This document shows, piece after piece, positions 35,744-38,923 of a DNA stretch of 64,000 nt. Where the stretch lies: contig OZ244620.1 of assembly GCA_965218395.1 (NCBI GenBank), forward strand, positions 1,342,930 to 1,406,929. Reading direction: 5' to 3'. Below the pieces are notes generated by a model. It saw only the letters and a list, made by a program, of their open reading frames with translations, ran no database searches and was not told the DNA's origin. How positions within the stretch are numbered: the first letter of the stretch is position 1; each line of letters opens with the position of its first letter. Source of the DNA: an uncultured Candidatus Binatia bacterium. GTDB lineage: Bacteria; Desulfobacterota; Binatia; Bin18. The position numbers were made by a program, and so were the translations under genes.

Positions 35744-36409
35744 CTATCCCGACCGGCCCGACCGGATTGCGTACACATCGACCTCTTCACGTCCAGCCAT
35801 CCAGGCCGTCTCGCGGTGCTGGACCTGGACGTGAAAGCGGGCGGCGGCGAGTTGTTCTAAAAATTTTTCGACACCCTCCCGCCGGGGGTCGCCAAAAAAG
35901 GCCCTGCCGCCCGTTCTGAGCGTGGCCGCCGAGAGCTTATACATCCAGCCGCCGTCGACCGCCTCGTACAGTACGTCAGCGCCGACAAGCACATCGTACT
36001 GGCCAAGCTGACGCACGCTGTTCTCATCCAGCCAGCAGCGGCACTGTTCCTGAACGCGGGGGACAGTATTGAGTTCACAATTCCGCTGGACCAGCTTCAG
36101 GGCTTCGGGAATATGATCCAGCGCGGTGACCTGCGCGCCCAGCGAAGACAGCACCACGCTCTCCAGCCCGACCCCACAGCCAATCACCAAGGCCTGCTTC
36201 TCGCGCCACCACTCAGCCGGATAGGTCGAGGCGAGATACTGCGACAGGGCGAGGCTGGCCGGCCAGGCCAGATGCCAGTAGTCGTTTGCGCCACAGTACG
36301 GGCAGCGGGAAAAATCGGGCTGGACGTTGCGAAGTTCAATCAGGCGCACGACGAGCTGCGGCGTGACCCGATACGGGAGAATGCTTTCTTCAAACAACTG
36401 TGTCGCCAT
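35744..36409 (-). CDS. Class I SAM methyltransferase (METTL21-like)
   Basis: YW..AWPAS, IGCGVGL, GADVLYE, DP.R. Confidence 0.8.
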   Translation of the reverse strand: MATQLFEESILPYRVTPQLVVRLIELRNVQPDFSRCPYCGANDYWHLAWPASLALSQYLASTYPAEWWREKQALVIGCGVGLESVVLSSLGAQVTALDHIPEALKLVQRNCELNTVPRVQEQCRCWLDENSVRQLGQYDVLVGADVLYEAVDGGWMYKLSAATLRTGGRAFFGDPRREGVEKFLEQLAAARFHVQVQHRETAWMAGREEVDVYAIRSGRSG

Positions 36410-36482
36410 GGTCTTGAGATAGGCGGCCCTTTCGGGTCCACTGCTCTTTTCGCAGCAGGTGCGGGATTAGCTTGAGGGTCAA

Positions 36483-36788
36483 TTATGGATGAATGCCAGG
36501 ATACCCGTCATCATACGAAAATGTCGCTCGGCGCATGCGACAGGGTTCATTTTCATGTCCGACACAGGTGACAAAAGGGTGCAGTTCTGACTCCTGGGCC
36601 GCATGAAAGACTTCCACCGGACTCTGCCCAGACACAATCACCTGGCCGTTTGCGAAGCCTATCCACTGATCGTGGTATCGGGGGAGCAACTGTTCACGCT
36701 GCACCCAGTACTCGGCCTCATTTTTACACCAGTCAGGGTGAATCTTCTGAGCCACTTCCGGCGGCAAGCCTTCAATCAGGCTTTTCAT
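36483..36788 (-). pseudogene. DUF5678-like protein, probably truncated
   Basis: LLPRYHDQWIGFANGQVIVSG pattern; abrupt end after FSYDDGYPG. Confidence 0.45.
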
Positions 36789-37009
36789 ACAACACCTCAA
36801 AGGCACTCGTCCTATTTTCCCCAAGAGGATTATACACCGATAGCGACTCCGGTAGCGAGACAGGAAAGCGGGAAGCGACCCAGTCTTGGATCGGGAGCCC
36901 ATTTTCGCTTGACAGCGGTCGTTCCGGTGCACTAGGACGGAGGCACGAGGAGACCGCGGGGAGCACCCCCCGTTTCTTTCAGTCAACATTGAGCGAGAGG
37001 AGGGACACT

Positions 37010-37606
37010 ATGGCACGGCTCAGTTTCGTTGACCCCAAGCAGATGAGTCCGCAGTATGCGCAACTGGTGGAACGGGTAAAGGACGCGGACGGCTATGTCA
37101 ACTTTTTGAGTATGATGGCCCACCGCCAGGAGGTCGTCGAGCCCATGTGGCGGGCCTATGTCGATATGTTCGAGGGCGGCATCGTCGAGCCCCCGCTCAA
37201 GGAGTTGGTCCGTATCAAAATTGCCTATCTGAACGGGTGTTTATTTTGACAGGGCTTTCGCTATGCATCGGTGATGCAAAAAGGACTGACCGAAGAAAAA
37301 ATCGCCCAACTCGAGGATTATGAAAACAGCCCGGCCTTTACTCCCCGCGAGAAGAGCGCCCTCCGCTATGCCGAGAAGCTGGCCGTTGATGTCGACGCGA
37401 TGGATAACGACGAGTTCTTTAGCGGGCTACAGCAACATTTTACCGACGCCGAGATCGTCGAGCTCGGCATCGTGATTGGATATGACATTGCCTTTGGTCG
37501 GCTGCTGCGCGTGTTTGACGCCGACCCGAAAGTGTGTGAAGTCCCGGAGCATCGTGAGGTTGACATAAACGTGAGCCAATCTCCCGCTCTGTCCGCAGCA
37601 AAATAG
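37010..37606 (+). CDS. AhpD/carboxymuconolactone decarboxylase family selenoprotein (Sec at codon 80, CxxU)
   Basis: LKELVRIKIAYLNG-C-L-F-[TGA 37247-37249]-QGFRYASV continues in frame into GLTEEKI..FTPREKSALRYAE..HFTDAEIVEL; hairpin directly downstream; GAGGAGG RBS. Confidence 0.85.
37250..37288 (+). promoter_or_regulatory. Putative bacterial SECIS element
   Basis: Upper stem TGCATC(37264-69)/GATGCA(37273-78) with GGT apical loop 20 nt after the UGA; lower pairing CAG..CTTT / AAAG..CTG. Confidence 0.75.
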
Positions 37607-37693
37607 CGCGTGCTACGGGTGGGTCAGGCCGGCCCACCCTCTTCTCTTGGATAGCCTACCGAAACGTCTCGGTGCCGTCGTCGAACAGCGCCC

Positions 37694-38923
37694 TCATATC
37701 CGTTCGATAATGGTGGCAATACCCATGCCGCCGCCGATACACATGGTGACCAGCCCGGTGGTTTTATCCTGACGTTCGAGTTCGTCGAGGACGGTGCCCA
37801 TGAGCATGCTGCCGGTTGCGCCGAGCGGATGACCGAGGGCGATCGCCCCACCGTTGACGTTGACCGTGTCCGGGTCCATGTCACAGTCGCGCATGGTTTT
37901 CAGCGGGACAACCGCAAATGCCTCGTTGATCTCAATCAGATCAATATCCTTGATCGTCATGCCGGCTTTTTTGAGCACCTTTTTGGTCGCCGGAACCGGT
38001 GCGGTCAACATGATAATGGGCTCATCCCCCGCCGTTGCGGTGGCGACAGTCCGAGCGCGCGGCTGCATGCCGTGGCTGCGGGCATACTCCGGAGAGGCCA
38101 GCAGCAGGGCTCCCGCGCCGTCAACGATGCCCGACGAATTGCCGGCGTGATGCACATGGTTGATCTCTGTCACGTCCGTGTAGCGTGACAGCGCCTTTTC
38201 GTCGAAACTCAGCGTGTCGCCCTTTTGCACATACTCTCCCAGTTTCGCAAAGGACGGCGGCAGTTGACCCAGCCCCTCAAGCGTCGTGCGTGGTCGCGGA
38301 TATTCGTCTTGTTCCAGGACCGTCGTGCCGTCGGCAGCGCGCACGGGAATCAGGCTCTTTTTCAGGCGACCTTCTTTATGAGCACGGGCGTAGCGCTGCT
38401 GGCTCGACAGCGCGAAGGTGTCGCAATCTTCGCGGCTGAACCCTTCTCGGGTGGCAATCAGATCGCCGGAGATGCCTTGCTGGACAAGCGGGTGGAGTTG
38501 GCGCAGATGCCGATTATGGCCGTCAATCCCACCCCGGTCCGCATTCATCGGCACGCGGGACATGGACTCCACCCCACCGGCCACCACCACGTCCTGCTCG
38601 CCGGACTTGATGCCCATGGCCGCAAAATTGACCGCCTGCTGTCCCGAGCCGCAGAAACGGTTGATCGTCACCCCGGTCGAATCGTTCGGCCACTCGGCTG
38701 CCAGCACGGACATCCGGGCGATGCACATGGCCTGTTCGCCATACGCCGTCACACAGCCAACCACTACGTCGTCCACATCTCGCGGGTCCAGGTGGTTTCG
38801 TTCTTTTGTGGCATTCAGGACCTGCGCCATGAGTTCCTGAGGATGGAGTCCTGCCAGCGCACCATCTTTCTTTCCCCGTCCGCGTGGGGTGCGAACGGCA
38901 TCAATAATCCAGGCTTCAGCCAT
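37694..38923 (-). CDS. Acetyl-CoA C-acyltransferase (thiolase)
   Basis: [25 protein letters not shown]. Confidence 0.93.

Follow-up and report, generated by a model that had tools for sequence, protein, structure and literature searches.

Selenoproteins of the AhpD-like type, in which selenocysteine (Sec, U) takes the second position of a CxxC redox motif, were described in 2005 (PMC1088965) and 2008 (PMC2398784). The first of these papers reports 27 predicted CxxU sequences of COG2128 in Sargasso Sea data, and the second, dealing with the GOS data, gives two families, 'AhpD-like 1' (COG2128, 299 sequences) and 'AhpD-like 2' (pfam02627, 70 sequences). A table in a 2026 review contains AhpD-like (TIGR01926), CMD-like (PF02627), NF041047 and NF041238 forms (PMC13188914). 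For PA0269 of Pseudomonas aeruginosa and AhpD of Mycobacterium tuberculosis a proton relay has been described that runs through Glu, Cys, either His or Tyr, Cys and His and includes Glu118, Cys130, Cys133 and His137 of AhpD, and passages of the same paper term both Cys residues and the His invariant in AhpD-like proteins (PMC3141380). The CMD fold can also catalyze reactions other than peroxide reduction, as indicated by the dehalogenation ascribed to Bmp8 (PMC7918430).

The gene analyzed here, from an uncultured Candidatus Binatia bacterium, occupies positions 37010-37606 of the window (the whole stretch of 64,000 nucleotides of DNA that was analyzed). It shares with the AhpD-like CxxU selenoproteins the fold family, Sec at the second CxxC position and a G in the small apical loop of the SECIS hairpin, and in both cases Cys homologs are widespread and the gene is usually missed by gene callers. 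In contrast to the catalogued families, it has a Binatia host and its product scores below the cut-offs of the NF053654 and TIGR01926 models; Arg, not His, stands four residues past Sec, the catalogued AhpD-like 1 family having been compared by its description. An earlier reading of the DNA (the sequence-only reading) overstated the novelty of this locus, AhpD-like proteins with CxxU having already been catalogued as a selenoprotein family (PMC1088965, PMC2398784, PMC13188914). No paper on a selenoprotein or selenocysteine in Binatia or Binatota was found in a literature search.

The results presented below indicate that 37010-37606 is very probably one functional selenoprotein gene whose UGA at codon 80 is decoded as Sec. 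The proposal of a Sec enzyme made in the sequence-only reading is supported by a conserved UGA at a site where homologs have Cys, a conserved and covarying stem-loop with G in its loop, Sec machinery in the genome and a reading frame that is under purifying selection before as well as after the UGA. The product is a selenoprotein of a known kind (AhpD-like CxxU).

Reading frame and public annotation

The frame at 37010-37606 consists of 198 codons and a TAG stop, and TGA 37247-37249 is its sole interruption when TGA is translated as U. Two listed ORFs, 36650..37249 and 37271..37606, share one frame, that of ATG 37010, so both the sequence and the ORF list agree with the earlier observation that only this TGA lies between them. 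Read-through gives a 198-residue product (MARLS...NGCLFUQGFR...SAAK) with U as residue 80; the translation thus confirmed a single protein having the TGA at the second redox position (C77-L-F-U80). The assignment of this product to the CMD/AhpD type was upheld by a Pfam match to CMD (PF02627) with an E-value of 9.6e-11 and 42 bits, above the cut-off of 23. The features of the gene, all on the + strand, are as follows.

36999..37003, +, Shine-Dalgarno-like GGAGG, 6 nt 5' of ATG 37010 (read from the sequence, putative function)
37010..37606, +, coding sequence, very probably of a Sec protein with the CMD/AhpD fold (translation, Pfam, 18 of 18 orthologs full length from MARLS, dN/dS)
37202..37204, +, codon of Glu65, counterpart of AhpD Glu118 and PA0269 Glu36 (invariant in the family alignment, aligns with the PA0269 Glu; role of the counterpart from PMC3141380)
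37238..37249, +, redox motif Cys77-Leu-Phe-Sec80, TGT TTA TTT TGA (aligns with actinobacterial CLFC and PA0269 CAYC)
37247..37249, +, UGA codon 80, very probably read as Sec (TGA in 18 of 18 orthologs and 15 distant homologs)
37259..37261, +, codon of Arg84, which aligns with the AhpD catalytic His (CxxCxxxH in PA0269, Atu0492 and 2OYO)
37264..37278, +, putative SECIS hairpin, stem 37264-37269 with 37273-37278, GGU loop 37270-37272 (covariation)
37535..37537, +, codon of Cys176 (VCEVP), third conserved Cys, near the C-terminus (Cys in most alignment rows)
37617..37649, +, terminator-like hairpin of 9 pairs (37617-37639) followed by a T-rich tail, 11 nt past the stop (consensus match only)

Annotation pipelines had been expected to split such a gene, and public collections indeed hold it as 79-aa and 110-aa pieces. 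The exact 79-aa N-terminal piece belongs to an unnamed cluster of 41 members and the 110-aa C-terminal pieces to unnamed clusters of 25 and 85 members. The nearest database proteins were C-terminal pieces of 108-116 aa, 75-99% identical at 49-56% query cover, and no full-length form was found in a database search over proteins of 108-347 aa.

Fold and relation to characterized proteins

The best NCBIfam match of the protein was NF053654 'YciW-related (seleno)protein', whose cut-off of 310 bits was missed with a score of 87.8; the score for TIGR01926 'peroxidase-related enzyme' was 37.6 bits, the cut-off there being 81.8. The protein scored below the curated cut-off of every NCBIfam model, and is a relative, not a member, of the NF053654 and TIGR01926 models, below whose cut-offs the four Sec paralogs of the same genome fell as well. 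An AlphaFold2 model built on a 29-sequence alignment had a mean pLDDT of 81.2 and a pTM of 0.79, with pLDDT below 50 at residues 176-179. Foldseek matched it to PDB entries 2PRR, 2OYO, 2PFX, 3C1L, 6K40, 2IJC, 2O4D, 7XW1, 6OHJ and 6OHI at TM scores of 0.52-0.76. Pfam and Foldseek together place the protein in the AhpD/CMD family, with an all-helical fold and CxxU on the catalytic helix.

The best PDB sequence match was PA0269 (2O4D, 2IJC, 7XW1), with E-values of 9.5e-14 for the single sequence and 4e-28 for the profile. The two proteins carry Glu and the CxxC residues on one and the same helix-turn-helix, PA0269 having about 145 aa, without the N-terminal 35 residues matched in the target. Compared with PA0269 and AhpD, the target carries F79 at the place of Tyr/His, R84 at the place of His and Sec instead of the second Cys. 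The TIGR01926 structures (2PRR, 2OYO, 2PFX, 3C1L) and 6K40 of Deinococcus radiodurans superposed along the full length at TM 0.69-0.76 over 176-189 columns, at 18-22% sequence identity to the target; the 2OYO motif, CLYCAVSH, is of the His type, unlike that of the target. The Bmp8 debrominase (6OHI, 6OHJ), a thiol-dependent dehalogenase of the CMD family, was matched by Foldseek (E 2.9e-4, TM 0.69) and by the profile (E 1.6e-13) at 13-16% identity, and no halogenase or bmp-like genes were found near the target locus.

The target falls outside AhpD proper. It has the Glu and the first Cys (E65 and C77), but Sec in place of the second Cys, Phe instead of His or Tyr just before it and Arg84 in place of the His, and the locus shows no ahpC linkage: ahpC, peroxiredoxin and reductase genes were all absent from the 9 neighboring ORFs, about 3.7 kb on either side.

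The Arg-type subfamily

The motif CxxCxxxH was found in PA0269, Atu0492 and 2OYO, in alignments covering five of the 17 PDB matches, and the corresponding residues of the target are E65, C77, F79, U80 and R84. The absence of the AhpD His noted earlier in QGFR was real, Arg84 lying four places after U. A profile search of 1.84 billion representatives retrieved 17,978 proteins when E was limited to <=0.001, and 172 with the stricter limit of <=1e-30. When the best 149 representatives were aligned, 94 had E/C/C/R and 21 had E/C/C/H, a ratio which is biased because the profile was built from Arg-type sequences. The covarying signature separating the two types is, unlike that ratio, unbiased, and comprises the following columns.

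Position 68: Arg in 94 of 94 Arg-type sequences and in 0 of 21 of the His type
Position 79: Val, Ile or Leu in the Arg type, Tyr in 21 of 21 of the His type
Cys near C176: present in 58 of 94 Arg-type sequences and in 0 of 21 of the His type

The distinct subfamily envisaged in the sequence-only reading was thus recovered, with Arg at the AhpD His site in 94 of the best 149 representatives and columns that vary with it. These alignments support the placing of the target in an uncharacterized subfamily, in which E65 is kept, R68 and R84 stand where the His/Tyr relay would be and a C-terminal Cys (C176) is often present. The source names of its proteins are limited to 'alkylhydroperoxidase family enzyme', 'peroxidase-related enzyme' and 'CMD family protein'. 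Since two Arg residues stand in place of the His/Tyr relay, the substrate is probably not that of classical AhpD.

It is also conceivable, though we regard it as rather unlikely, that proteins with the pattern E...R...N-x-C-x-x-[C/U]-x-x-x-R are no peroxiredoxin reductases of the AhpD type but enzymes of a class of their own, whose thiolate or selenolate, activated by Arg, would attack some other electrophile. These proteins have two invariant Arg residues, no His/Tyr relay and often a C-terminal Cys. By analogy, the electrophile could be a peroxide, with direct attack like that of peroxiredoxins, or an organohalide, the substrate type of Bmp8. Sec-dependent deiodinases are a further analogue of the organohalide chemistry. 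Binatia retain 4-6 Sec paralogs per genome, and this DNA occurs in sequencing runs that include libraries labelled sponge metagenome. If it were correct, Binatia would be a selenoprotein-rich lineage in which selenium is used for such Arg-activated chemistry.

The hairpin downstream of the UGA

The hairpin reported in the sequence-only reading has the coordinates and shape given there. A perfect 6-bp stem, TGCATC 37264-37269 with GATGCA 37273-37278, encloses the loop GGT 37270-37272, the stem beginning 14 nt and the loop 20 nt from the TGA. Folded as a lone sequence, the 54 nt after the UGA gave an MFE of -10 kcal/mol, which was equalled or bettered by 52 of 200 shuffles (z = -0.58); since this single-sequence stability is not significant, the case for the hairpin rests on covariation.

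Covariation was determined in an alignment (A1) of 32 sequences, 22 of them distinct; the paralog L026, because of its 5-nt loop, and the pseudogene L049 had been removed beforehand. The six stem pairs were formed in 96.2% of cells, as against 20.5-50% when the 3' partner was slid by 1-3 columns, and five of the six pairs had changes on both sides. The covariation score was 0.635, compared with a shuffled mean of 0.197, and was matched by none of 500 shuffles. MFE folds gave a 6-8 bp stem and a triloop at a constant distance from the UGA in every clade. The stem letters varied by paralog clade (UGCAUC, UGCACA, CGCGCU, GUUGCUUU, UGCCUC), with the position and the G-rich triloop (GGU, GGC, GAU or GGA across clades) remaining constant. 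These results indicate that the hairpin is kept among homologs with compensatory changes, its conservation being one of the checks proposed in the sequence-only reading.

Among the orthologs the closing pair was U-A in 5, C-G in 13 and mispaired in none. The change on the 5' side is synonymous (Tyr TAT to TAC) and that on the 3' side replaces Gln90 by Arg, a combination that points to constraint at the RNA level. Three non-Sec homologs taken as controls had 2, 2 and 1 of the 6 stem pairs at these columns. In one of them, the Cys form L082, a hairpin of 5 bp with the loop UCG lies one nt off the SECIS position, and a hairpin at this place is therefore not exclusive to Sec forms. A search of 36300-37800 against Rfam at E up to 1 gave no match.

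The covariation bears on the reading of the locus as two small proteins (79 aa and 110 aa), or as an N-terminal piece left alone by termination at UGA80. Public collections do store the pieces in this manner (clusters of 41, and of 25 and 85), and GTG 37271 is callable as a start. However, the split would fall within the CxxC active-site helix of a single fold, the Cys homologs form one chain, GTG 37271 lies in the hairpin loop with no Shine-Dalgarno motif seen ahead of it, and the hairpin covariation would be left without explanation. We consider this reading very improbable, and a single selenoprotein is preferred.

Sec machinery and other selenoprotein genes of the genome

The source genome (5.02 Mb, 2 contigs, 98% complete) contains a tRNA-Sec gene (68.7 bits against a gathering score of 47; anticodon TCA by ARAGORN) adjoining selA (597.8 bits), together with selB (381.5 bits) and selD (307.9 bits). 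All four exceeded curated cut-offs, and the Sec machinery that had been named as a check is thus in place. The 64,000-nt window itself contains neither sel genes nor tRNAs, in agreement with the absence of sel genes noted before. In SelD, selenophosphate synthetase is fused to a pyridine-nucleotide disulfide oxidoreductase domain (Pyr_redox_2), giving a protein of 755 aa; the Ndh-SelD fusion type is mentioned in the GOS paper (PMC2398784).

Five CMD genes with one in-frame TGA each were found in the genome, the target at C1:1379939 and four more obtained in the scan for paralogs. These four genes and the selD fusion are located as follows.

G000:C1:255247-255789, CMD/AhpD Sec paralog L022, one TGA at CxxU, then a hairpin
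G000:C1:3065135-3065647, CMD/AhpD Sec paralog L023, one TGA at CxxU, then a hairpin
G000:C1:1894245-1894763, CMD/AhpD Sec paralog L024, one TGA at CxxU, then a hairpin
G000:C1:877056-877562, CMD/AhpD Sec paralog L026, one TGA at CxxU, then a hairpin with a 5-nt loop, His type CHYUVPTH
G000:C1:3886708-3887625 (L018:262-2526), Ndh-SelD-type fusion (domain matches)

One further CMD paralog of the source genome has CxxE and is without TGA. Most large genomes of the genus gave 4-6 CMD matches each. A Sec peroxiredoxin gene (L083, G000:C1:2968600-2970000) was also found, with TGA at locus position 607 in the motif FTPGU and a candidate SECIS (5-bp stem CGGGC/GCCCG, loop AGGAA) 17 nt past the UGA, which differs from the CMD-family hairpin.

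Several of the Sec paralogs are terminated by a second TGA. TGA is thus also an ordinary stop in this lineage, which argues against a reassigned code; reassignment was rejected on this ground and on the occurrence of Cys, not Trp or Gly, at the column in homologs.

Read-through of UGA80 as Cys or Trp, either near-cognate or by Cys carried on tRNA(Sec) under selenium scarcity, would be compatible with the computed results as such and with the interchange of Sec and Cys between lineages at this column. Against this stand the full Sec machinery, the covarying SelB-type hairpin at the canonical distance and the same arrangement in four paralogs and one peroxiredoxin of the source genome, and such read-through appears highly unlikely. 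Insertion of Sec at UGA80 would, judging from the sequence, be carried out by SelB.

Conservation of the TGA and selection on the gene

TGA was present at codon 80 in 18 of 18 full-length orthologs of one Candidatus Binatia genus, which are 87-99% identical in protein and 83-99% in DNA, and was kept too in loci L076, L078 and L079 (79-87% identical). A further 15 homologs, more distant at 22-44% identity, had C-x-x-U at this column, within the motifs NNCFTU, NQCLFU, NECRTU, NACRTU, NNCHLU, NDCALU, NDCNLU, NECQLU and NSCHYU. A search of 61 related genomes, including the source genome (G000), gave matches in 39 at E <=1e-15, and by hand count an in-frame TGA occurred in all but 3 of about 120 matches listed from them. 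Cys occupied the Sec column in 9 actinobacterial-type homologs (INGCLFCQDWR, CLFC), and TGC stood there in two Binatia-class homologs. The check for TGA or Cys at codon 80 of homologs thus gave TGA in all 18 orthologs and TGA or Cys in the distant ones. An unrooted family tree of 29 members placed the Sec clades in a polytomy with the Cys clade.

Mean dN/dS over the 18 orthologs was 0.061 in the part before the UGA (codons 1-79) and 0.097 in the part after it (codons 81-198). The low values on both sides of the UGA indicate that both halves are translated in this frame.

The TGA was also examined in contigs of four further sequencing runs, which listed no difference at 37247-37249. It was bridged, with at least 31 letters on each side, by contigs of three runs (two RNA-seq libraries and one DNA run) originating from other studies, and so came through the check for an assembly error unchanged. 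The RNA-seq-library contigs over the TGA had at least 99% identity and are no proof of transcription, because DNA can occur in such libraries. In run X5 no single contig spanned the TGA with 31 letters on both sides.

Two side observations concern this region. Contigs of all four runs broke at about 37258-37308, at the TGA/SECIS segment, and segment 37238-37309 appeared as short contigs of high depth in both DNA runs (for X5 a depth of 255-353, compared with about 88; for X12 one of 116-191, compared with 71-93). The breaks and the rise in depth suggest a stretch that is identical among co-occurring strains and collapsed in the assembly graph. Separately, a genome of the same genus carries a decayed copy of the gene (L049/L080, G019:C1:6024924-6025427) with TGG at the Sec codon, frameshifts and extra stops.

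A pseudogene or assembly error, that is, a nonsense mutation or sequencing mistake in an ordinary CxxC gene, has a negligible chance of being correct and is refuted by the comparative data, for although gene callers handle the gene as broken and the relative G019 has a decayed, frameshifted copy, the TGA is found in each of the 18 orthologs, which come from separate assemblies, both flanks of it have dN/dS values of about 0.06-0.10, contigs of three further runs bridge it unchanged, and the G019 copy shows TGG and frameshifts, with no clean TGA.

Organism and neighboring genes

The taxon labels of 21 related loci were Candidatus Binatia (18), Binatota (1), Thermodesulfobacteriota (1) and 'uncultured Enterobacteriaceae' (1). 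The two loci with discordant labels, L076 (an 87%-identical ortholog, 'uncultured Enterobacteriaceae bacterium') and L069 ('Thermodesulfobacteriota bacterium'), probably derive from mislabelled Binatia bins.

The gene is preceded by a SAM-methyltransferase gene and followed by a thiolase gene, both of which lie on the minus strand. All 18 ortholog loci retained the methyltransferase neighbor and 17 of them the thiolase, and the nature of these flanking genes suggests no redox partner. An upstream minus-strand ORF of 168 aa matched no Pfam family at E up to 0.001. For its 101-aa core (MKSLIEGLPPEVAQKIHPDW..., 36483-36788, minus strand) only a sub-threshold hint of DUF5678 (E 0.071) was obtained. 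This 101-aa ORF is carried by a stretch of about 400 nt within the gap of 600 bp that separates the methyltransferase and the selenoprotein genes. Of the 18 ortholog loci, only L021, L034, L037 and L045 have this stretch, the gap being about 230 bp elsewhere, and it may be a small inserted gene.

Proposed mechanism and significance

In the proposed mechanism the hairpin at 37264-37278 would act as a bacterial SECIS recruiting SelB with Sec-tRNA(Sec), the latter being made by SelA and the Ndh-SelD fusion, which are encoded elsewhere in the genome. The product would be a 198-residue protein with the all-helical AhpD fold, of the COG2128/YciW 'peroxidase-related' type, and with Cys77-x-x-Sec80 as its redox center. 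In the most likely cycle the selenolate of Sec80 would be the nucleophile attacking an oxidized partner or a peroxide, Cys77 would resolve this to a selenenylsulfide with Sec80, and a thiol reductant would then reduce the latter. In AhpD of M. tuberculosis the second Cys is the attacking residue, which fits Sec at that site. This putative cycle is borrowed from AhpD, although the His that is invariant there is missing in the target. More speculatively, R68 and R84, in place of the His relay, might activate the selenolate directly or might reflect an anionic or other substrate.

The main value of these results is the correction of the annotation of the target gene, its four Sec paralogs and their Binatia counterparts. 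Since the Binatia genes are stored as unnamed fragments of 79 aa and 110 aa, selenoproteome and redox inventory counts for this uncultured lineage are too low. The results also provide a modest biochemical lead, namely a large, uncharacterized Arg-type branch of the AhpD fold without the catalytic His of the textbook AhpD mechanism; in the Sec forms of this branch, the presence of Sec identifies the second redox position as reactive.
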